In this document: positions 358 through 11,050 of the stretch, piece by piece | How the letters are laid out: each line of letters opens with the position of its first letter | Position numbering within the stretch: position 1 is the stretch's first letter | From: a virus | Taxonomy: Duplodnaviria; Heunggongvirae; Uroviricota; Caudoviricetes | Virus record (IMG/VR): IMGVR_UViG_2744054628_000002 | Coordinates: 1-11,990 of that record | Length of the DNA stretch: 11,990 nt | Direction: 5' to 3' (one strand) | The notes under the pieces: generated by a model | The model's database searches: none | What the model was told of the DNA's origin: nothing | The model's input: the letters and a program-made list of their open reading frames with translations, nothing else | Position numbers and translations under genes: made by a program

Positions 358-488
358 CGAGATTAAAGTGCATTAGTTCAGATGCAAATTGACATTTTGT
401 GGCACAGGGTAGAGCTAGCGTGGTTGTCCGCTTTGTGCCAATAGCGGACATTGCTGGCTCATGGTATGTTAGTTTAAGGAGGCAGGTT

Positions 489-1511
489 ATGCCCTGTATT
501 TCGCTGTGGTATAATAGTTGCGCAATTGATACAAGGGAGCGTTACATCGTGAAAATTGTTTTCGAGGTTAATGGAAAGAAAGTTCCACTAAAATCTTTAA
601 AATACATAAGCAAAAAAGATCAACTCGAAGTAATGAAAAACTGGTTCTTTGAAAACTTTGAAGATCCGGCAAATGCTTGTCCGTATGAAAGTAGAGAAGG
701 TGGCTATGCTTACATATATGGCGGGCCGTATGATGCGAGCGAAGAACTACAATCCATCTTCGGTCAATATGTTAAATCTGAGTATATTGAGGAATTAGTA
801 GATGAATTACAAACACAATGTTTTGACTGGTCTGGAAACTCAAATAATATAGATGATTGGTACGATGATGATATCTACGACGCTGTAACGTCTTCCGGTA
901 ATCCGTATTTAAAATTCATTGATAATATCGATAAAATAAAAAAACTTGCAAAAGATAAAACTGAACAACAGCAAAAAAACCACTTGCTTAGTTTGCTCTA
1001 CACGAATGTTATTACAGCTTTGGAAACGCTTTATGTTGAGCTATTCATTAATTCTATAGAGAAAGATGATGTCTACATAGCCAATTGTATAGAAAAAGGT
1101 AAGACTGAATTTAAAGTAAGCAAAGATATTGCTGCGTTGCCTTTCAAGGGTGAACCCATCGAGAAAATTAGGGGAGAGCTAATCAGGTCAATCAAGGAAC
1201 ACTTGATCAGTGCAAGCTGGCATAGCACTAAAAAGGTAATCGACCGCTATGAAGCTACATTCGATATAAAAGTACAAAAAGACTGTCCGATAGAAGCTAT
1301 TGAATTGGCAACCCTCAATCGAAATCACTTAGTGCATCGTGGTGGAAAGGATAAAGAAGGGAACCTCGTTGTGATTACAGACCAGGATCTTGAAACGCTG
1401 ATTGAAAATGCATCGAACCTGGCAATTATGCTCTACAACAGTTTAAATGTAGCAACGAATAAAACCACCATTTTGCAACCAGATGACAAACCGTTCATTC
1501 ATGAATTTTAA
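489..1511 (+). CDS. cassette protein A, unknown function; C-terminal helical region carries an R-x4-H motif (RNHLVH) compatible with a HEPN-type RNase fold. Start ambiguous: ATG 489, GTG 549, or the ORF-track GTG 399
   Basis: Long ORF ending TAA 1509-1511. ATG 489 is preceded by AAGGAGG (476-482) with a 6-nt spacer; in-frame GTG 549 is preceded by AAGGGAG (533-539). AT-rich and N/K/I/Y-rich, unlike flanking phage genes. RNHLVH is encoded at 1320-1337. I recognise no family beyond this motif. Confidence 0.7.
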   Translation: MPCISLWYNSCAIDTRERYIVKIVFEVNGKKVPLKSLKYISKKDQLEVMKNWFFENFEDPANACPYESREGGYAYIYGGPYDASEELQSIFGQYVKSEYIEELVDELQTQCFDWSGNSNNIDDWYDDDIYDAVTSSGNPYLKFIDNIDKIKKLAKDKTEQQQKNHLLSLLYTNVITALETLYVELFINSIEKDDVYIANCIEKGKTEFKVSKDIAALPFKGEPIEKIRGELIRSIKEHLISASWHSTKKVIDRYEATFDIKVQKDCPIEAIELATLNRNHLVHRGGKDKEGNLVVITDQDLETLIENASNLAIMLYNSLNVATNKTTILQPDDKPFIHEF

Positions 1512-1526
1512 TAGCGCAGGTCATAC

Positions 1527-2528
1527 ATGGATATTCGCACACGAAAGACAAAATTTTTAGAGTCGTTAGATTCAACTGAAGTGATACGCAAAGCAGTAAG
1601 TCTCGCTATAGATTGCATTATTGATAATCATAATAGTAATGAAGATACCCCCTTAGTTATTACCAGCTATGATGATCTCTGTAGAATCCAGGTGCTAAAT
1701 TATGTACAGGAGTTTTGCGAAGCTGCATTCCCTGATATGGATGAATATTACTTTAGTCCTAACATACTTCGCATCAACGGCAAGACTAGTGAAGAAGCTT
1801 GTATTAACTTAATTAAACTCTTAAGAAGTACAAAAGGCATGCTATTCTGGTCCGATGCCCCATCGTGGTTCGCTAGCCTCCCCGACGGATTATTCCATGT
1901 TGTTAACATTGATCAAAAAATCGTTACTCGCGGCCTTAATAAGAAAAACTCTAAGCCGACAATAATCAATAAAGATTACAGTGTAGATACACTACTATCA
2001 GAGCTATTTTTGAATGGCGCACACATGGAGCAACCCAACGTACACAACGTTTCTGAGGGAAACATGAAGTTCTATGATGAATGCCATGCTGGATTAATCA
2101 GACCAATACCCGCTCCAATAGGCGCGTCATACGATGAAGAGATCACAATTAATTCTCCAGATTGGCAAAAGCTCGCGTGTGTAGCTTTACGCCGCTATCA
2201 GTCGAAGGAATGTCATGACGGAATGCAATGGGATACAACCGATCATGGTTGGACTGATGTAATCGCGTATCCATTCGTCGAAGAAATACAATCAATGGAT
2301 AATAGTGGTTATCGACAATGTTTAGTTGGGCTGGTCACAATAAACAATTCAAATGCAAATTCTCCGTACCTATCTACCGTTTGGATACATCCATTTTATC
2401 GCAGGAGAGGGTTATTAAGTAAGTTATGGCCAAAATTACAAGAGTTATATGGAAGTAACTTCGAAATTGAGCGACCTAATGAAAATATGAAAGCATTTCT
2501 GAAAAGTGCGAAACACGCAGATTACTAA
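1527..2528 (+). CDS. cassette protein B, 333 aa; unknown N-terminal domain plus C-terminal region with a GNAT-acetyltransferase-like motif A (IHPFYRRRGLLSKLW)
   Basis: ATG 1527 lies 15 nt after the stop of protein A, same strand, implying an operon; stop TAA 2526-2528. The motif at about 2385-2429 resembles the acetyl-CoA-binding V-x-P-x-x-R-x-x-G-x-G/A segment of GNAT enzymes, with L in place of the second G. AT-rich like gene A. Confidence 0.75.
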   Translation: MDIRTRKTKFLESLDSTEVIRKAVSLAIDCIIDNHNSNEDTPLVITSYDDLCRIQVLNYVQEFCEAAFPDMDEYYFSPNILRINGKTSEEACINLIKLLRSTKGMLFWSDAPSWFASLPDGLFHVVNIDQKIVTRGLNKKNSKPTIINKDYSVDTLLSELFLNGAHMEQPNVHNVSEGNMKFYDECHAGLIRPIPAPIGASYDEEITINSPDWQKLACVALRRYQSKECHDGMQWDTTDHGWTDVIAYPFVEEIQSMDNSGYRQCLVGLVTINNSNANSPYLSTVWIHPFYRRRGLLSKLWPKLQELYGSNFEIERPNENMKAFLKSAKHADY

Positions 2529-2941
2529 TTTATGAATCAGTCTGTGGAGTTAGAGTTGGTGTGAACAAGTAGGGTAAGAGCCTCAACGTGATGCTATGCC
2601 GACCTGCTCCCTGAGAATTCACACAGAAGGCTGCTAGCAATGTCTGCAGATCGCTCAAAGCGGACTAGAAGGTTAGCTTGCGTCGGACTTGGCGTATTTA
2701 AAGAAGTGCTGGTGGTGACTGGTTGTTGTGTTCCATTTCTACAGAACAAAATCACAGAAACTATACCCAATAGTTGTATCTCATCAATGATGAGACAGCC
2801 TCATATTTATCAGGACTGGTGTACGTCCAATACAGGAGGTTGTCGTGCTGGTTCTCAAATGTGCGCTGGCTATTGCAGCTGTAATGGCAATTTATTGTCT
2901 TGCTGTTGTTCTTATGGATCGCTTTTCTGATTGATTTTATA

Positions 2942-2970: not shown

Positions 2971-3145
2971 GGCTGCGGGTGCTTGAGGCTATCTGTCTCA
3001 GGCATGAACACCAAAGGCAGATAGAGAAAAGCCCCAGTTAACATTACGCGTCCTGCAAGACGCTTAACATTAATCTGAGGCTCAATCTATGAACGGCAAA
3101 TCTAGGTTAGCCTCTTACGTGCCGAAAGGCAAGGAGAAGCAGGCT

Positions 3146-3301
3146 ATGAAGCAGCAAAAGGCGATGTTAATCGCCCTGATCGTCATCTGTTTAACCGTCA
3201 TAGTGACGGCACTGGTAACGAGGAAAGACCTCTGCGAGGTACGAATCCGAACCGGCCAGACGGAGGTCGCTGTCTTCACAGCTTACGAACCTGAGGAGTA
3301 A
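3146..3301 (+). CDS. hok: Hok-family type I toxin (small membrane host-killing peptide), 51 aa
   Basis: Translation MKQQKAMLIALIVICLTVIVTALVTRKDLCEVRIRTGQTEVAVFTAYEPEE matches the Hok/Gef/RelF(HokD) family as I recall it: single TM helix and conserved C-terminal AVFxAYE. ATG 3146; AAGGAG at 3131-3136. The ORF-track start 3089 is an in-frame upstream ATG. Confidence 0.9.
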   Translation: MKQQKAMLIALIVICLTVIVTALVTRKDLCEVRIRTGQTEVAVFTAYEPEE

Positions 3302-4809: not shown

Positions 4810-5184
4810 ATGCGTATAGAGTTTGTTTTGCCTTACCCGCCGACGGTGAACACCTACTGGCGACGTCGTGGCAGCACATATTTTGTATCAAAAGCCGGTG
4901 AGCGTTATCGCCGTGATGTGGCGCTTATTGTTCGCCAGCAGCGACTGAAATTAAATCTGTCCGGAAGGCTGGCGATCAGGATTATTGTGGAGCCACCGGA
5001 TAAGCGTCGTCGCGACCTGGACAATATCCTGAAAGCACCGCTGGATGCGCTGACGCATGCGGGAGTGTTAATGGACGATGAGCAGTTTGATGAAATCAAT
5101 ATCGTTCGTGGTCAGCCAGTATCTGGTGGACGTCTGGGGGTGAAGATTTACCCCATAATGCATGAAGAGCAGGTCAAAAAATGA
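4810..5184 (+). CDS. rusA: RusA-family Holliday junction resolvase (endodeoxyribonuclease), 124 aa
   Basis: Conserved RusA signatures: N-terminal PPTVNTYW and catalytic-region RRRDLDN. AAGGGG RBS 4797-4802. Stop TGA 5182-5184 overlaps the Q start. Confidence 0.93.
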   Translation: MRIEFVLPYPPTVNTYWRRRGSTYFVSKAGERYRRDVALIVRQQRLKLNLSGRLAIRIIVEPPDKRRRDLDNILKAPLDALTHAGVLMDDEQFDEINIVRGQPVSGGRLGVKIYPIMHEEQVKK

Positions 5185-6002
5185 AACTGGAAGATTTACC
5201 GAAATACTACTCCCCAAAATCCCCTTGCCTGACCGATGCATCGGCCTCAACGTCAAAAGATGCGCTGAGTATCACTGATGTGATGGCCGCGCAGGGCATG
5301 ACACAGAATCGGGCTGAGATGGGGTTTTCTGCGTTCCTGGGGAAAATGGGCATCAGTATGAATGACAGGGCGCGGGCAACAGAATTACTGGCAGATTATG
5401 CACTCAGTCGGTGCGATCGTGTGGCGGCGTTGAGAAAACTTCCGGCAGAAATAAAACCGGTAGTGATGCGCATTATGGCTTCGTACGCTTTTGAGGATTA
5501 TGCCCGCAGCGCAGCGAGTAAAAAGCAGTGCCCTTGTTGCTATGGGGAAAAATTTATTGAAAGCGTAGTTTTTACAAACAAGGTCCAGTATCCGGATGGT
5601 AAGCCGCCGGTATGGGCAAAGTGTACGAAAGGTGTGTATCCGTCTTACTGGGAAGAATGGAAAAAAGTCAGGGAGGTGGTAAAAGTTGCCTGTCCGGAGT
5701 GTGGCGGAAAGGGTGAGGTTTCCACCGCCTGTAAGGATTGCCGTGGGCGTGGTGTCGCCATTCACCGTGAAGAGTCGGTAAAACGTGGTATGCCTGTTAT
5801 CAGAGACTGCCAGCGTTGTGGTGGTCGTGGCTATGAAAGACTACCATCAACGGAGGTATTTAATGCTATATGCGAGGTGACAAACCAGATAACACGCGCG
5901 TCATGGGAAAAAACAGTTAAGAAATTCTATGATGCGCTGGTGACCCGGTTTGATATTGAAGAAGCATGGGCTGAGCGGCAGTTAAAAAAGGTAACTAGGT
6001 AA
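5181..6002 (+). CDS. Q: late-gene antitermination protein Q (lambda Q family) with an expanded Cys-rich zinc-binding region, 273 aa
   Basis: N-terminus (KYYSPKSP...DVMAAQGM) and C-terminus (SWEKTVKKFYDALV...VTR) parallel lambda Q as recalled; central CPECGGKG, CKDCRGRG and CQRCGGRG repeats. A pR'-like promoter follows immediately. Confidence 0.88.
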   Translation: MKLEDLPKYYSPKSPCLTDASASTSKDALSITDVMAAQGMTQNRAEMGFSAFLGKMGISMNDRARATELLADYALSRCDRVAALRKLPAEIKPVVMRIMASYAFEDYARSAASKKQCPCCYGEKFIESVVFTNKVQYPDGKPPVWAKCTKGVYPSYWEEWKKVREVVKVACPECGGKGEVSTACKDCRGRGVAIHREESVKRGMPVIRDCQRCGGRGYERLPSTEVFNAICEVTNQITRASWEKTVKKFYDALVTRFDIEEAWAERQLKKVTR

Positions 6003-6106: not shown

Positions 6107-6145
6107 ATTGCGAAATTAATTACGGACCGTTATTATTCTGCTCCC

Positions 6146-6221
6146 GGCCCTTTAGCTCAGTGGTGAGAGCGAGCGACTCATAATCGCCAGGTCGCTGGTT
6201 CAAATCCAGCAAGGGCCACCA
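6146..6221 (+). tRNA. tRNA with CAT anticodon (Met or lysidine-type Ile2), 76 nt, CCA encoded; probably the ileX/ileZ-like tRNA that lambdoid and Stx phages carry after Q
   Basis: Hand-folded cloverleaf: acceptor GGCCCTT/AAGGGCC, D-arm GCTC-AGTGGTGA-GAGC, anticodon loop CTCATAA (CAT at 6179-6181), T-arm GCTGG-TTCAAAT-CCAGC, discriminator A, CCA 6219-6221. Close to E. coli ileX as recalled. Confidence 0.85.
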
Positions 6222-6366: not shown

Positions 6367-6731
6367 GTGGTTGCACTCCTGTTGTTTCTGGTGGTGATGG
6401 TGGACTTCAGCAGCCGGATAATGTCGGTGCTGTCTGATGGTGTTTTGGTGGCGGGTGTGTGGTTGTTGCTTTCCCGTTGCTGAAAAAGAAAGCATCAGGC
6501 GATTAGCAGGGTATCAGTTACCCGTTGAAATTTTTAAATACCTCACAATTCCACAGCTTGATGATTGTCTGGCTGCCGGAGAATTTGTTAAAAATTACAT
6601 CGCATGGTGAATCCCCCTGTGCGGAGGGGTAATCAGCGAGTAGGTATATGGGATAATCGCGGATTCAGGTGCTGGTACTGAATTCACCGGGAGGCACCCG
6701 GCACCATGCAATGGCACATAGCGCCACTCTC

Positions 6732-6759
6732 CAGCCCCTCTCCGGAGGGGCTGTTTATA
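6732..6759 (+). terminator. GC-rich hairpin followed by T-rich tract; candidate intrinsic terminator
   Basis: 9-bp stem CAGCCCCTC / GAGGGGCTG with TCCG loop (6732-6753), then TTTATATTGATTTTG. U-tract is interrupted, so strength uncertain. Confidence 0.4.
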
Positions 6760-6787
6760 TTGATTTTGTCAGATGTGAGTAAACTCC

Positions 6788-7123
6788 TTATGGACTTTGT
6801 TGTTTTAGTCCATAAGGACATATTTGCAGAATGCAACGGTTATTAAAGCATTCATTCAATACGTTATCTGTATTTGTAGGGCATTCCTGGCTGTTTTTGA
6901 TTAAATTCCAGAATGTTTTATTGAATGGTACTACGTTGTAAATGGTTACAGGTAGCACTTTGTTATTGAGCATGATGCCTGTGTGAGTCAGTGTAAATAT
7001 ACTTTCAGGAGGTAAGAAAGCATCCGATTGATACCAGATTATTAATTTTATTTTACTCCATATGACTGAAAAAGATATTCCGCATGATGGCTGGATAACT
7101 GTATCAATCACAATCCACTTCAT
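6788..7123 (-). CDS. hypothetical Cys-containing protein in AT-rich moron, 111 aa, no recognisable family
   Basis: ATG at 7123 (- strand) preceded by AGGA with ~6-nt spacer; stop at 6788-6790. Opposite strand to all flanking phage genes, AT-rich, and sits in the Q-to-S cargo slot. No signal peptide evident. Confidence 0.6.
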
Positions 7124-7382
7124 TTACTTTCCTTGTTTATGCCTTGCTGGTGATGTTCTGAAAAGTATAAATGATATTTTTGAATTAAACCATAGAGCAG
7201 AATTATTTTTCTGATGTTGTTTATTGTTTATTTAAATACAGGGTGGTTTATATCTCGTCTTGTAGTTTATCCATGCATATCTGCTTGATAATCAGGTTTT
7301 TATTTAAGGTATGGTTTTGTGTTTTTTCTGTATTACATGTCAGGTATTTTAAAGAATTATTTTTCAGATGGTGGAAAGAACC

Positions 7383-7571
7383 ATGGCATTTAAACACTAT
7401 GATGTTGTCAGGGCGGCGCCGCCGTCAGATCTTGCGGAAAAGCTGACACATAAACTGAAAGAGGGCTGGCAGCCGTTTGGTAGTCCGGTGGCCATAACCC
7501 CTTATACCCTGATGCAGGCGATTGCAGCAGAAGGTGATGTGGTGGTCAGCGGTGCAACTGAGCCGGAGTGA
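7383..7571 (+). CDS. small conserved lambdoid-prophage protein found upstream of lysis genes (possibly DUF1737-like); function unknown
   Basis: ORF 7368..7571; internal ATG 7383 has a better purine-rich RBS (GGTGGAAAGA). N-terminus MAFKHYDVVRAAPPSDLAEKL resembles small proteins I recall at this position; family name is tentative. Confidence 0.5.
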   Translation: MAFKHYDVVRAAPPSDLAEKLTHKLKEGWQPFGSPVAITPYTLMQAIAAEGDVVVSGATEPE

Positions 7572-7814
7572 TACTACGTCATCGTACTGGCCCGGCATTC
7601 CAGGCCATAAAAGACAGTCTGGCAGTGGGACTAAATGCACTGACGCTGACGGATATTACCAAAAATGCAACGTATGGCGTTGAGATAGAAAGTCTGGTGC
7701 TGGAGATAAATGCACCGGCATCATCATAAAAAGTGAGCCAGTCAAATGGAAGGTATCGTTAAACTCACCGGTAGTGTCAGTGGGTCGTCTGAGACGCTTG
7801 CATGAGTTATCAGA

Positions 7815-7843
7815 GCCATCAGTAGTTAACTGGTGGCTTTTTT
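7815..7843 (+). terminator. intrinsic terminator immediately upstream of the holin gene
   Basis: 8-bp stem GCCATCAG / CTGGTGGC (one G-T wobble), 7-nt loop, then TTTTTT (7838-7843). Lies inside the GTG-initiated extension of ORF 7774..8094, supporting the ATG 7879 start. Confidence 0.55.
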
Positions 7844-7878
7844 ATTGTTGTCAGCTTCCGGATAACGGGAGACGGGGT

Positions 7879-8094
7879 ATGGACCAGATGGAAAAAATCA
7901 CAACAGGTGTGTCATACACCACGTCAGCGGTGGGAACGGGCTACTGGTTCCTGCAGTTGCTGGACAGGGTTTCCCCGTCTCAGTGGGCGGCAATAGGCGT
8001 GCTGGGGAGTCTGCTGTTTGGGCTGCTGACATATCTGACTAACCTGTATTTCAAAATCAGAGAGGACCGTCGTAAGGCTGCACGGGGAGAGTAA
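7879..8094 (+). CDS. S: class II holin / pinholin (phage 21 S-like), 71 aa, with dual-start motif Met1...Met4
   Basis: [15 protein letters not shown]...[40 protein letters not shown]: two TM segments plus charged tail, similar to S21 as recalled. GGGAGA RBS 7867-7872, 6-nt spacer. Confidence 0.85.
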
Positions 8095-8098
8095 TTCA

Positions 8099-8449
8099 AT
8101 GACTCAAAACTATGAACTGATTGTGAAAGGGATCCGCAATTTTGAGAATAAAGTTACGGTAACTTTAGCGTTACGGGACAAAAAACGCTTTGACGGTGAA
8201 ATTTTTGACCTGGACATCTCGCTGGACCGTGTTGAAGGTGCCGCGCTGGAGTTTTATGAGGCAGCAGCCAGAATGAGCATCAGACAGGTCTTCCTGGATG
8301 TTGCTGCCGGGTTATGTGAAGGGGATGAGCAGTCGCCGGAAAAGCGCCCCGTAATTTTAGAGGCGCAGAATGTATGGATAACCTACAAAGGAAAGCTACC
8401 GGGAAGAATTACTGGTTCTCTGAAGACTCCTCCGGAATCACAACCTTAA
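8099..8449 (+). CDS. hypothetical protein between holin and endolysin (YdfR-like by position and size; possibly DUF1327), 116 aa
   Basis: ATG 8099 follows holin stop TAA 8092-8094 by 4 nt. Positional match to ydfR between essQ and rrrQ in Qin, from memory. No catalytic motif recognised. Confidence 0.65.
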   Translation: MTQNYELIVKGIRNFENKVTVTLALRDKKRFDGEIFDLDISLDRVEGAALEFYEAAARMSIRQVFLDVAAGLCEGDEQSPEKRPVILEAQNVWITYKGKLPGRITGSLKTPPESQP

Positions 8450-8512
8450 GTCACTGACCGGAACAGATAAACCTGTCCGTGGGCAGAAACCGATAAATCC
8501 TGATAAATATCC

Positions 8513-9046
8513 ATGAACGCAAAAATCAGATACGGCCTGTCGGCTGCCGTTCTGGCACTGATTGCCGTCGGTGCGCCCGCGCCTGATATTCTCGACCAGT
8601 TTCTGGATGAAAAAGAAGGTAACCACACAACGGCATACCGCGATGGGTCCGGCATCTGGACCATCTGTCGGGGTGCCACGATGGTGGATGGAAAACCCGT
8701 TTTTCCCGGTATGAAACTGTCGAAGGAAAAATGCGACCAGGTCAACGCCATTGAGCGTGATAAGGCGCTGGCATGGGTGGAGCGCAATATTAAAGTACTA
8801 CTGACCGAACCACAAAAAGCGGGTATAGCGTCATTCTGTCCCTATAACATTGGCCCCGGTAAGTGTTTCCCGTCGACGTTTTATAAGCGGCTGAATGCCG
8901 GTGATCGTAAGGGCGCATGCGAGGCGATTCGCTGGTGGATAAAAGATGGTGGGCGCGATTGCCGCATACGTTCAAATAACTGCTATGGACAGGTTATTCG
9001 TCGTGACCAGGAAAGCGCATTAGCCTGTTGGGGGATAGAGCAGTGA
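8513..9046 (+). CDS. R: SAR endolysin (T4-lysozyme-like muramidase, phage 21 R / RrrQ-like), 177 aa
   Basis: Gly/Ala-rich hydrophobic N-terminal signal-anchor-release segment ([16 protein letters not shown]), then E-x8-D-x5-T catalytic pattern ([16 protein letters not shown]) and C-terminal ALACWG, as in R21-type lysozymes. Confidence 0.9.
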
Positions 9047-9504
9047 GCAGAGTCGCCGCGATTATTTATGCTTTGGTTATCTGCATCATCGTCTGCCTGT
9101 CGTGGGCGGTCAATCATTACCGTGATAACGCCATCGCCTACAAAGAACAGCGTGATAAAAAAGTCAGTGAGCTGAAGCAGGCGATCGCCACTATCGCTGA
9201 CATGCAGCAGCGTCAGCGTGATGTTGCTGCGCTCGATGCAAAATACACGAGGGAGTTAGCTGATGCGAAAGCTGAAAATGATGCTCTGCGTGATGATGTT
9301 GCCGCTGGTCGTCGTCGGTTGCACATCAAAGCAGTCTGTCAGTCAGTGCGTGAAGCCACCACCGCCTCCGGCGTGGATAATGCAGCCACCCCCCGACTGG
9401 CAGACACCGCTGAACGGGATTATTTCACCCTCAGAGAGAGGCTGATCACTATGCAAAAACAACTGGAAGGAACCCAGAAGTATATTAATGAGCAGTGCAG
9501 ATAG
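9043..9504 (+). CDS. Rz: i-spanin Rz, 153 aa
   Basis: GTG 9043 overlaps the R stop (TGA 9044-9046) and follows GGGGGA. Product [31 protein letters not shown]... is near-identical to lambda Rz as recalled. The ORF-track start 9028 is TTG inside R. Confidence 0.9.
9263..9445 (+). CDS. Rz1: o-spanin Rz1 lipoprotein, 60 aa, embedded in the +1 frame of Rz
   Basis: [24 protein letters not shown]...[29 protein letters not shown]: lipobox VVGC, proline-rich; matches lambda Rz1 as recalled. GGGAG RBS 9251-9255. Confidence 0.9.
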
Positions 9505-9535
9505 AGCTGCCCATATCGATGGGCAACTCATGCAA

Positions 9536-9829
9536 TTATTGTGAGCAATACACACGCGCTTCCAGTGGAGTATAAATGCCTAAAGTAATAAAACCGAGAA
9601 ATCCATTTACGAATGTTTGCTGGGTTTCTGTTTTAACAACATTTTCTGCGCCGCCACAAATTTTGGCTGCATCAACAGTTTTCTCCTGTCCAATTCCCGA
9701 AACGAAGAAATGATGGGTGATGGTTTCCTTTGGTGTTACTGCTGTCGGTTTGTTTCCAACAGTAAACGTCTGTTGAGCACATCCTGTAATAAGCATTGCC
9801 AGAGCGGCAGAAAACAACATTTTTTTCAT
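9536..9829 (-). CDS. bor: Bor lipoprotein (serum-resistance / Iss family), 97 aa
   Basis: From ATG at 9829 (- strand): MKKMLFSAALAMLITGCAQQTFTV...LEARVYCSQ with lipobox ITGC; near-identical to lambda Bor as recalled. The ORF-track start at 9877 is an upstream extension. Convergent with Rz. Confidence 0.9.
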   Translation of the reverse strand: MKKMLFSAALAMLITGCAQQTFTVGNKPTAVTPKETITHHFFVSGIGQEKTVDAAKICGGAENVVKTETQQTFVNGFLGFITLGIYTPLEARVYCSQ

Positions 9830-10212
9830 CTTATTATCCTGCATTGTTAAAAACGGCAGAATCCTATGTGACAACAATTAAACGATAGTTAAATGGATTG
9901 ATGAAAATTAAAACTATATAGGTGGATGCTCAGCCTATCGGAGGTAGTCAGGATTTGAATGTCAGTCTGTTGTCGGCATTCTGGCAATGCAATTTGGATA
10001 AAGCGGGGATTAAAAAGATAGAGGCGAGCCGGTCAGGTAGAAATGAATCAGGCTCAAAGTGAAGCGGAAAAGGTCTGTGGCACAAGCTGATGCAGCCATA
10101 ATTACAGCCTGATGATTTGTGGAATGAAACATGTTGAACCTCCTTAATTGATGTTATTCGAGTGATGAAGGCATTCTGTCCTTCTATAGTGTCCAGTAAA
10201 TCAAACAGGAAA

Positions 10213-10234
10213 CTTGTCCAACGTGTTGGACAAG
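10213..10234. repeat. perfect 10-bp inverted repeat with 2-bp spacer (CTTGTCCAAC GT GTTGGACAAG), candidate operator
   Basis: Arms are exact reverse complements; additional TGTCC-containing half-site-like copies lie just upstream (~10177-10196). About 90 bp upstream of the G start. Confidence 0.5.
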
Positions 10235-10325
10235 CCTCTCCATTAGTGAGTTGTATTGATCACAACTCTACAAAGAATTCATTACTGGGTAGATGAAAAT
10301 AGTTTCACTATGAATGGAGGAGGCT

Positions 10326-10748
10326 ATGTCGGTGGCTTCTTCATTGGAGTACCGTCAGTTAATGAGGATAGATGTGATGACTAAAAATATCCGTAATCTG
10401 GCACTGGCAGCGATGTCGGGGTTTCGCCATAAAACTGTTGATGTGCCTGAATGGGAAGGGGCAACGGTTGTATTACGGGAACCTTCTGCAGAAGCCTGGT
10501 TGCGCTGGCAGGAGATCGTTAAAGCAAAAGATGATGAGACACCGTTATCCGTTGCGGAGCTCGCCCGCCGAAATCTGGAAGCGGATGTTGAACTGTTCAT
10601 CGATGTTCTGTGTGATACCGGACTGCAACCTGTATTTTCAGTGGATGATCGTGAACAGGTGATTGCCGTGTATGGCCCGGTGCATGCGCGGCTTCTTCGG
10701 CAGTCTCTGGAACTGATCAGTGATGCCGGCGAGGTTAAAAAAAAGTAG
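10326..10748 (+). CDS. G: tail assembly chaperone G, 140 aa
   Basis: ATG 10326 with GGAGG RBS (10316-10320); ORF ends EVKKK-TAG with the slippery heptamer A_AAA_AAG (10739-10745) just before the stop. The ORF-track start 10314 is an upstream in-frame ATG without a good RBS. Confidence 0.75.
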   Translation: MSVASSLEYRQLMRIDVMTKNIRNLALAAMSGFRHKTVDVPEWEGATVVLREPSAEAWLRWQEIVKAKDDETPLSVAELARRNLEADVELFIDVLCDTGLQPVFSVDDREQVIAVYGPVHARLLRQSLELISDAGEVKKK

Positions 10749-11050
10749 CGCTTCCGGGGATGCGTTTTCTGATGATGCTGGCGCTCAGGATGGGGCGCAC
10801 ATTGTCAGAGTTACGCCGGGAAATGTCCGCATCAGAAATCATGATGTGGGCAGAGTTTGACAGGTTCAGCCCGCTGGGGGACGAACGGGCTGATATCCGG
10901 GCTGCCCAGATTGTTTCAGCTGTTTACGGTGCGCAGGGGGTCAAAGTGCCACTGAATGATGCGCTTCTTCAGTGGGAGAAGGAGCAGACAGAAGGCGTAT
11001 CAGATCCATTTGCTGGACTGGAAAACGCGCTTTTAATAGTGTCTCAGTGA
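10739..11050 (+). CDS. T: T segment of the G-T tail assembly chaperone fusion, reached by -1 programmed ribosomal frameshift at A_AAA_AAG
   Basis: The -1 frame is open from the slip site through ...VALPGMRFLMMLALRMG... (ORF 10760..11050) to TGA 11048-11050. The fusion product would span 10326..11050. Confidence 0.7.
   Translation, partial: KKVALPGMRFLMMLALRMGRTLSELRREMSASEIMMWAEFDRFSPLGDERADIRAAQIVSAVYGAQGVKVPLNDALLQWEKEQTEGVSDPFAGLENALLIVSQ

Follow-up and report, generated by a model that had tools for sequence, protein, structure and literature searches.

Several lysis regions of lambdoid phages have been described which are close to the locus reported here. Phage lambda encodes a class I three-helix holin (S) and a cytoplasmic transglycosylase (R), together with Rz, Rz1 and Bor. 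In phage 21/DLP12 (EssD, RrrD, Rz/Rz1, bor) the S and R are of the phage 21 type and are paired with Rz/Rz1/bor of the lambda type, and in DLP12 no gene separates S from R. Phage 21 itself has been placed in the lambda spanin families (PMC6139136). The E. coli K-12 cryptic prophage Qin has the order essQ-ydfR-rrrQ-rzpQ/rzoQ, with a spanin of the DUF2514 type. The lysis regions of the Stx phages 933W, H-19B and Stx2-86 carry S, R, Rz/Rz1 and bor. Among these, 933W combines Qin-type S and R with lambda-type Rz/Rz1/bor, has no ydfR and has an ant gene between R and Rz, and in Stx2-86 a YdfR-family gene (product of 268 aa, then a reverse ORF) separates S from R, and lambda-type Rz/Rz1 and bor lie downstream. 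Pinholins form small heptameric channels which depolarise the membrane and keep a cytoplasmic endolysin inside the cell. SAR endolysins of the R21 or P1 Lyz kind combine a T4-lysozyme-like muramidase domain (triad E-x8-D/C-x5-T) with an uncleaved, weakly hydrophobic, Gly/Ala-rich N-terminal membrane segment and are released and activated when the proton-motive force collapses.

In the window (the whole stretch of viral DNA that was analysed, 11,990 nucleotides) the region 7879-9504 codes for five proteins, namely S, a YdfR/DUF1327 protein, R, Rz and Rz1 (Table 1). A mosaic lysis cassette had been proposed at this place by a sequence-only reading and the proposal was borne out, as the five ORFs are intact and all their products have Pfam matches far beyond the cut-offs. 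The ORF positions of that reading are also those of the RefSeq annotation in near-identical genomes (coordinates of the RefSeq-annotated locus L001 minus 1701 give window coordinates). We put the probability at about 0.88 that the region represents the lysis cassette in the late operon of a lambda-like E. coli prophage, including the accessory YdfR and a joint between Qin/933W-type and lambda-type genes. The cassette, its mosaic structure and its gene families are already known from RefSeq annotation and from descriptions of Qin, DLP12/phage 21, 933W and lambda. A tested stretch of 2.65 kb was covered to at least 80% in 430 of 5426 complete E. coli genomes, in which the genes are named class II holin, YdfR family, lysozyme, lysis protein and Iss by RefSeq. 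The phage isolate vB_EcoS-640R1 and others also carry the cassette stretch with 99.1% identity.

Table 1. Coordinates of the lysis cassette and its neighbouring features in the window
Feature	Position	Strand	Evidence and remarks
Terminator-like hairpin and T-run	7812..7840	+	About 40 nt upstream of S; consensus scan: 12-bp stem, then TTTTATTG
S, class II holin, P21 family (pinholin type), 71 aa	7879-8094	+	Pfam PF04971 9e-33; PHROG holin families
ydfR-family (DUF1327) gene, 116 aa, predicted soluble	8099-8449	+	Pfam PF07041 5e-42; PHROG 406/2091
Spacer between ydfR and R, 63 nt	8450..8512	+	No feature detected
R, T4-lysozyme-like endolysin (Phage_lysozyme), 177 aa	8513-9046	+	Pfam PF00959 1.5e-23; E35/D44/T50
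Rz, inner-membrane spanin subunit, 153 aa	9043-9504	+	Pfam PF03245 (Phage_lysis) 9e-52
Rz1, outer-membrane lipoprotein spanin subunit, 60 aa	9263-9445	+	Pfam PF06085 3e-20; within Rz
bor/iss lipoprotein gene	9536..9829	-	Pfam Lambda_Bor PF06291 4e-30; just downstream of Rz/Rz1

The S protein matches Phage_holin_2_1 with 112 bits against a cut-off of 26 and corresponds to WP_000372595.1 in RefSeq ('class II holin family protein'). It shares 70 of 71 residues with S of Stx2-86, 69 with S of 933W, 57 (80%) with EssD and 56 (79%) with EssQ, whereas its 27% identity to lambda S is no real similarity. Comparison with S21 (54/71 identical) was used as a side check only, and the conclusions on S and R rest on EssD and RrrD of DLP12 and on the PDB chain of R21. 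Hydropathy analysis gave the two transmembrane segments expected for S, a weak TMD1 (aa 8-28, KD 0.53, 52% G/A/S/T) and a strong TMD2 (aa 36-58, KD 1.48), with values almost equal to those of EssD. The TMD2 residues G40, S44 and G48, which we take to be a glycine zipper as in the S21 literature, are conserved in EssD.

A dual start of S, as antiholin and holin, had also been proposed, and this stood in part. Met1 and Met4 (codon at 7888) are both present and each is preceded by a G-rich Shine-Dalgarno-like sequence, but the extension Met-Asp-Gln is without Lys or Arg. RNA structure around the two start codons was not significant (z = -1.17). The start MDQM (MYQM in 933W and Stx2-86) is unlike the S21-type MKSM with its cationic residue, and the antiholin S21-71, which begins with MKSM, is marked by its extra positive charge (PMC9636201). 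The long form of S from Met1 is thus a putative antiholin whose role is unproven, because its extension does not have this charge. The idea that ydfR makes up for the missing cationic extension was discarded, since ydfR occurs together with MKSM in Qin and is absent from 933W, whose S starts with MYQM.

In the R protein the proposed E-x8-D-x5-T triad was found again, and each of its residues is aligned with its counterpart in the R21 structure 3HDE; the PDB matches of R include R21 (3HDE, E 9e-16) and RrrD (4ZPU). The proposed SAR segment was seen by hydropathy as an N-terminal Ala/Gly-rich, SAR-like segment of about aa 7-24 with a KD of ~1.9, against 2.29 for the SAR segment of RrrD and 3.0 for the N-terminal membrane anchor of Rz (aa 4-20). 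Lambda R has no N-terminal hydrophobic segment. The holin family and the E-D-T triad are those of phage 21/DLP12 and the N-terminus of R is SAR-like, but R is only 36% identical to RrrD, in comparison with 94% to RrrQ (166/177), 165/177 to R of Stx2-86 and 90% to R of 933W (160/177). The term 'phage-21-type' given to both genes thus suits S, which is of the P21 family and 80% identical to EssD, and not R. On the basis of the likeness of S to 933W and of R to RrrQ and 933W, both were assigned to the Qin/933W type. As judged from homologues which are 36-80% identical, S would be a pinholin-type holin, with pinhole formation and differing use of Met1 and Met4, and R would show SAR behaviour.

Rz and Rz1 form an embedded two-component spanin of the lambda type, and the near identity with lambda proposed earlier was confirmed by alignment (Rz 139/153, 91%; Rz1 59/60, 98%). 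The corresponding values for DLP12 are 137/153 (90%) with RzpD and 59/60 (98%) with RzoD. Rz1 lies in the +1 frame of Rz, since (9263-9043) mod 3 = 1, and has the same lipobox as lambda (VVGC). Rz combines its N-terminal membrane anchor with a coiled periplasmic domain. It starts with GTG and overlaps the R stop in the sequence GTGA, and DLP12 has the same GTG start within CAGTGA. The product of bor/iss has a LITGC lipobox and is identical to lambda Bor in 88 of 97 residues (91%) and to the DLP12 protein in 90%; in near-identical genomes RefSeq names it 'increased serum survival lipoprotein Iss'. This gene belongs to the same lambda-type module as Rz/Rz1.

At the DNA level, homology with Qin covers 7888-8304 and 8503-9046 of the window and homology with lambda covers 9044-9883 (91.6% identical over 840 bp). 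The Qin homology ends exactly at the R stop/Rz start, where the lambda/DLP12 homology begins, and the joint is the hexamer CAGTGA, which is common to the window, DLP12 and Qin. Qin has the same S-ydfR-R order and the same S-ydfR junction, unlike its spanin, which is unrelated to the one here (31% and 27% identity). The view that the cassette is a recombinant of lambdoid lineages thus holds relative to Qin, with the breakpoint at the R stop/Rz start, and the same combination is published and common. Judged by sequence, a module S-(ydfR)-R of the Qin/933W type has here been joined to a lambda/21/DLP12-type Rz-Rz1-bor module. This is routine lambdoid mosaicism and no special event; lambda-type Rz/Rz1/bor are already paired with Qin-type S and R in 933W and with 21-type S and R in DLP12.

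The 116-aa ORF between S and R had been compared with ydfR of Qin, and its membership in the DUF1327 family was confirmed (142 bits against a cut-off of 25, over the N-terminal domain). Its start lies 4 nt past the S stop and its Shine-Dalgarno sequence (GGGGAGAG) is within the 3′ end of S. In the spacer before R the last ~30 nt (ACCGATAAATCCTGATAAATATCC) are common to Stx2-86 and the last ~15 nt to Qin. The protein is 99% identical to a cluster of 1129 member sequences (YdfR family/DUF1327 in NCBI and UniRef), the dN/dS of codons 1-70 is 0.25-0.28, and the ORF is a real gene under purifying selection. K-12 YdfR is ~80% identical over aa 1-70 and differs after residue ~70; it has 103 aa with an unrelated C-terminus overlapping the rrrQ start, where the present gene is followed by the 63-nt spacer. 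No hydrophobic segment was found in the 116-aa protein (maximum KD 1.03). Its AlphaFold model has three strands and a long helix in aa 3-72 (pLDDT ~60-86 per 10-residue block), with low confidence in aa 73-116 and a mean pLDDT of 60. A PDB sequence search gave nothing up to E 10, Foldseek with the model gave no hit below E 0.01 in PDB or BFVD, and PADLOC and NCBIfam gave no match, so these searches offer no structural or family lead past DUF1327.

Outside the lambdoid prophages of Escherichia/Shigella the YdfR/DUF1327 family is hardly found. An exhaustive profile search, run over 1.84 billion representatives, gave only 90 DUF1327 clusters, many of them fragments or stand-alone domains of 72-76 aa, and the family lengths were 103-287 aa in the searches (up to 296 in PHROG profiles) with a common N-terminal domain. 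Stand-alone genes of 72 aa sit after a tape-measure gene, and in a Pantoea prophage (one locus, from a narrow-alignment genome scan) such a gene is flanked by Q and by a class I holin, which is accompanied by a GH19-type endolysin. The restriction of DUF1327 to pinholin/SAR cassettes was dropped as an idea in view of these two contexts.

By analogy with phage 21 S and R and with lambda Rz and Rz1, the homologues on which experiments have been done, the following course of lysis may be proposed. Q-dependent late transcription would give one mRNA for S, YdfR, R, Rz and Rz1, and the hairpin upstream of S is probably one of the terminators which are read through by the Q-modified polymerase. An Rfam scan gave no match within 7879-9504. 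S would build up in the inner membrane until its weak first helix leaves the bilayer and small pinholes are formed, which would collapse the proton-motive force. R would be exported via Sec, with its N-terminal signal-anchor-release (SAR) segment holding it in the membrane in an inactive state; after depolarisation it would pass to the periplasm, refold and cut the peptidoglycan with E35, D44 and T50. The Rz/Rz1 complex would disrupt the outer membrane as the last step. The 116-aa YdfR would be a soluble, co-transcribed, 'moron'-like accessory product at the boundary of the S and R modules, and bor/iss would give a lipoprotein expressed in the lysogen from the opposite strand.

Two other explanations concern the working of the cassette itself. 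The N-terminal segment of R might be an ordinary cleavable Sec signal peptide, so that R is secreted and not tethered to the membrane; the layout of a basic MNAKIR, a hydrophobic core and small residues resembles a signal peptide, and the relatives RrrQ and 933W R have AGA|S, which resembles a signal-peptidase site. In this allele of R, however, a proline comes directly after each of the two A-x-A sites (VGA|P, APA|P), and proline in this position blocks cleavage by signal peptidase I. The core is also short and Ala/Gly-rich, with a hydrophobicity far below that of the Rz anchor, in the manner of R21-like SAR segments, and the partner holin belongs to the pinholin family, the typical companion of SAR endolysins (PMC9636201). 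We consider a cleavable signal peptide very improbable and prefer the SAR reading of R. It is a more serious, though still unlikely, possibility that the prophage is decaying and that its cassette, in this genome, is a silent relic without a present function. The prophage in the window is without terminase and head genes: relative to the intact prophage NZ_LR882050, ~8.2 kb, including genes for HNH endonuclease, terminase, portal, protease, capsid and connector, was deleted directly after bor/iss, and a sister strain has a different deletion at the same place. Because of the missing genes the cassette cannot serve virion release here and may be silent. Against this reading, the five lysis ORFs are undamaged, identity of the region with the intact prophage is 99.8%, and both Q and the late-region elements upstream have been retained, so the cassette could still kill the cell on induction.

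The third explanation makes the YdfR-family protein a dedicated lysis regulator, acting as an antiholin-like cytoplasmic factor or in the control of SAR-endolysin release and timing lysis with S. Its place between S and R is fixed in hundreds of E. coli genomes and in 101 phage records, the gene is tightly coupled to S by the 4-nt gap and the Shine-Dalgarno sequence inside S, and a long S form without cationic extension could need another timing control. An envelope-integrity screen cited in PMC13232886 is said to have flagged ydfR. Against this, 933W has near-identical S and 90%-identical R without ydfR, the combination of MKSM and ydfR in Qin means that the presence of the gene does not follow the S N-terminus, and hydropathy shows neither a membrane nor an export signal in the protein, which also has no match to a lysis-regulator family, solved structure or fold. 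Distant DUF1327 genes follow a tape-measure gene or precede a class I holin whose partner endolysin is of the cytoplasmic type, and over-expression of K-12 YdfR gave no growth defect (PMC13232886). A regulator of this kind therefore seems improbable. The ydfR-family gene behaves, so far as its sequence and distribution indicate, as a late-operon accessory gene and not as a core lysis gene, on account of the 933W arrangement, the 268-aa protein at the same site in Stx2-86, the varied lengths and contexts of the family, the absence of a hydrophobic segment and the dN/dS. Aa 1-72 of K-12 YdfR are reported to bind the catalytic half of RNase E (Rne 1-597/598) in two-hybrid and pull-down assays, and RNA co-purifies (PMC13232886). 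This evidence was obtained by over-expressing the K-12 protein, which diverges from ours past residue ~70, altered few transcripts and caused no growth phenotype. As the conserved aa 1-72 of our protein match this RNase E/RNA-binding part, the most likely, weakly supported reading is that it may be a late-expressed modulator of host RNA metabolism. The specific form of this, in which it would bind the catalytic half of RNase E (or RNA) and tune the stability of late and lysis transcripts, hence lysis timing or burst size, is doubtful.

The cassette provides a clean worked example of the exchange of endolysin and spanin modules at a shared joint of 6 bp. For the widespread YdfR/DUF1327 family, the RNase E binding reported in 2026 opens a way to test its function. 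A role in tuning transcripts through RNase E, if true, would explain why ydfR has lodged so often in or beside lysis cassettes.

The lysis cassette described in the sequence-only reading was confirmed as an observation, and its interpretation is supported, though three points need qualifying: the type of the endolysin, the charge of the holin (S) and the standard nature of the mosaic. The five forward-strand genes listed there, i.e. S, the 116-aa ydfR-family gene, the endolysin gene R and the spanin genes Rz and Rz1, were found in their positions by ORF listing and direct reading. All Pfam scores, including that of Bor, are far beyond the cut-offs, PHROGs is consistent with Pfam on the gene families, and in near-identical genomes the same ORFs carry the RefSeq names class II holin family protein, YdfR family protein, lysozyme, lysis protein and Iss. 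Rz starts with GTG, within the GTGA that overlaps the R stop.

Features of the window, and stand-alone DUF1327 domains in other loci (last three rows)
Feature	Position	Strand	Details
DUF968 gene, rusA			upstream of cassette
Q antiterminator gene	5181-6002		upstream of cassette
Promoter-like site	6108-6136		
tRNA	6146-6221		anticodon CAT; just 3' of Q
sRNA STnc100	6572-6762		full-length family match, 132 bits; between Q and lysis genes
IraM-like ORF	6788-7123	-	111 aa; 'anti-adapter protein IraM' in near-identical genomes
DUF1737 ORF	7368-7571		intact in window ORF list
Terminator-like hairpin	7812-7840		shortly before S
S	7879-8094	+	71 aa; second Met codon at 7888; Phage_holin_2_1, 'Bacteriophage P21 holin S', 9e-33
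116-aa ORF (ydfR family)	8099-8449	+	DUF1327, 5e-42
R	8513-9046	+	177 aa; Phage_lysozyme, 1.5e-23
Rz	9043-9504	+	Phage_lysis, 9e-52
Rz1	9263-9445	+	inside Rz, +1 frame; Pfam 3e-20
bor-like gene	9536-9829	-	Lambda_Bor, 4e-30
72-aa DUF1327 domain, L008	4140-4358		outside pinholin cassettes
72-aa DUF1327 domain, L009	3642-3860		outside pinholin cassettes
72-aa DUF1327 domain, L011	3501-3716		outside pinholin cassettes

The two hydrophobic segments expected of a pinholin-family S were confirmed by hydropathy (KD): the first is weakly hydrophobic (aa 8-28, KD 0.53, Gly/Ala/Ser/Thr 52%) and the second clearly so (aa 36-58, KD 1.48), with values close to those of EssD from prophage DLP12. Identities are 70/71 to Stx2-86 S, 69/71 to 933W S, 57/71 to EssD and 56/71 to EssQ of prophage Qin. 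The dual start at Met1 and Met4 exists as codons, but the antiholin role assigned to the longer form is unsupported by the sequence, its extension Met-Asp-Gln having no cationic residue. The long N-terminus (7879-7890) reads Met-Asp-Gln-Met with an acidic three-residue extension, whereas the 21-type EssD and EssQ begin MKSM (Met-Lys-Ser-Met) and the S proteins of 933W and Stx2-86 begin Met-Tyr-Gln-Met; additional positive charge is the hallmark of the S21-71 antiholin (PMC9636201). The clade of window, 933W and Stx2-86 S is without the charge feature linked to antiholin activity.

The joint naming of S and R as phage-21-type holds for the holin, which falls in the P21 family, but the endolysin is of Qin/933W type, with identities of 166/177 to RrrQ of Qin, 165/177 to Stx2-86 R, 160/177 to 933W R and only 36% to RrrD (DLP12) and R21. 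A solved-structure search with R returned the phage 21 endolysin (3HDE, 3HDF) and RrrD (4ZPU); in its alignment R21 has the same E35, D44 and T50, therefore the E-x8-D-x5-T triad proposed for R is real. At the N-terminus is a short hydrophobic Ala/Gly-rich segment with KD about 1.9, compared with 2.29 for the signal-anchor-release (SAR) segment of the 21-like RrrD and 3.0 for the Rz membrane anchor; lambda R has no such N-terminal segment. In the window allele proline directly follows both A-x-A sites, which argues against cleavage and would fit retention of the N-terminus as a putative SAR segment. The periplasmic domain holds eight cysteines (52, 74, 109, 118, 136, 150, 157, 172), with none in the hydrophobic segment and four in RrrD; a part in disulfide stabilisation or regulation is possible.

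The closeness to lambda was borne out for Rz (139/153) and Rz1 (59/60), with Bor at 88/97, and the corresponding DLP12 proteins have nearly equal identities to the window. DNA homology to Qin covers 7888-8304 and 8503-9046, that to lambda covers 9044-9883 (91.6%), and the switch lies at the R stop/Rz start. The joint sequence CAGTGA is common to the window, DLP12 and Qin, and these 6 bp are a plausible crossover point. The proposed recombination of different lambdoid lineages is upheld as Qin-type S/R joined to lambda-type Rz/Rz1. This mosaic with bor is a standard, already published combination: 933W has Qin-type S and R with lambda-type Rz/Rz1/bor, and its published annotation names both Qin and lambda among its relatives; in DLP12 the same lambda-type genes come after S and R of 21 type. 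A spanin survey assigned phage 21, 933W, H-19B and Stx2-86 to the i- and o-spanin families of lambda (PMC6139136).

The cassette is common. Of 5426 complete E. coli genomes, 430 cover at least 80% of the 2.65-kb stretch 7300-9950; for 344 records the best match reaches 99% identity or more, and sequenced phage isolates carry the stretch too (e.g. vB_EcoS-640R1, 99.1% identical). Directly after bor/iss come tail-assembly-chaperone genes (Phage_TAC_1, 10314-10748; Phage_tail_T, 10760-11050). Against the intact relative NZ_LR882050, about 8.2 kb is deleted with the joint at about 10350 (region 9830-11050); HNH endonuclease, terminase, portal, protease, capsid and connector genes are among those lost. 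With head and terminase genes lost the window prophage is therefore defective, its lysis genes still being intact. The sister strain NZ_OZ547155 is also deleted at this place, but differently.

The elements upstream of the cassette form the usual Q-dependent late-region layout, from which we infer its expression. The tRNA is called tRNA-Met by ARAGORN and tRNA-Ile by RefSeq for the identical gene; the STnc100 match runs up to a strong terminator hairpin (6732-6753), and the IraM-like ORF has no Pfam match. RefSeq treats the near-identical DUF1737 gene of relatives as a partial pseudogene; a 53-aa 'hypothetical protein' ORF (7568-7729) comes next and overlaps it. A hok/sok type I toxin-antitoxin locus lies at 2977-3301 (Rfam sok match 2977-3151; HokD-like ORF ending at 3301). 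A segment of low GC (399-2528, 35-41%) that NZ_LR882050 lacks (window 450-2642 is unmatched there) contains two ORFs, of 370 and 333 aa; their sole Pfam matches, HEPN_RES_NTD1 and GNAT, are sub-cut-off and PADLOC gave none. The segment may be uncharacterised toxin or defence-like cargo.

The ydfR family is narrow, with 319 clusters at 90% identity, nearly all from Escherichia/Shigella, 90 representatives among 1.84 billion proteins and 101 phage records, every one an Escherichia lambdoid or Stx phage. The commonest form is 116 aa, as in the window (a single cluster with 1129 sequences). The family alignment shows conservation of an N-terminal domain (aa 1-72) and of a second stretch (aa 73-113) that is absent from K-12 YdfR, whose C-terminus is unrelated, and in some members extra C-terminal extensions giving 176-287 aa; tandem two-domain versions also occur (P0184, P0191). 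The gene is under purifying selection: dN/dS is 0.25-0.28 over its N-terminal domain, while S and R have 0.05-0.10. AlphaFold models aa 3-72 as three strands and a long helix (pLDDT roughly 60-86 in 10-residue blocks), with low confidence beyond aa 72. No significant fold match was obtained in PDB or BFVD, no match by PDB sequence search, PADLOC or NCBIfam, and no hydrophobic segment by hydropathy.

The evidence is mostly against this family being a lysis gene. In 933W no gene separates the near-identical S from an R of 90% identity; Stx2-86 has at that site a 268-aa member and a reverse ORF. Stand-alone 72-aa DUF1327 genes directly follow the tape-measure gene on two metagenomic contigs, and a Pantoea lambdoid prophage has another such gene, with Q on one side and a class I (lambda-type) holin plus GH19-type endolysin on the other. 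The domain therefore moves around as an accessory of the late region, independently of the pinholin/SAR pair. The sole experimental clue to function comes from K-12 YdfR: its residues 1-72 bind RNase E in the N-terminal half of the enzyme (two-hybrid and co-purification), RNA co-purifies with YdfR, and YdfR over-expression altered few transcripts and left growth unaffected; an envelope-integrity screen cited there also flagged ydfR (PMC13232886). With low confidence, the most likely function is that of a modulator, expressed late and acting on RNase E or RNA.
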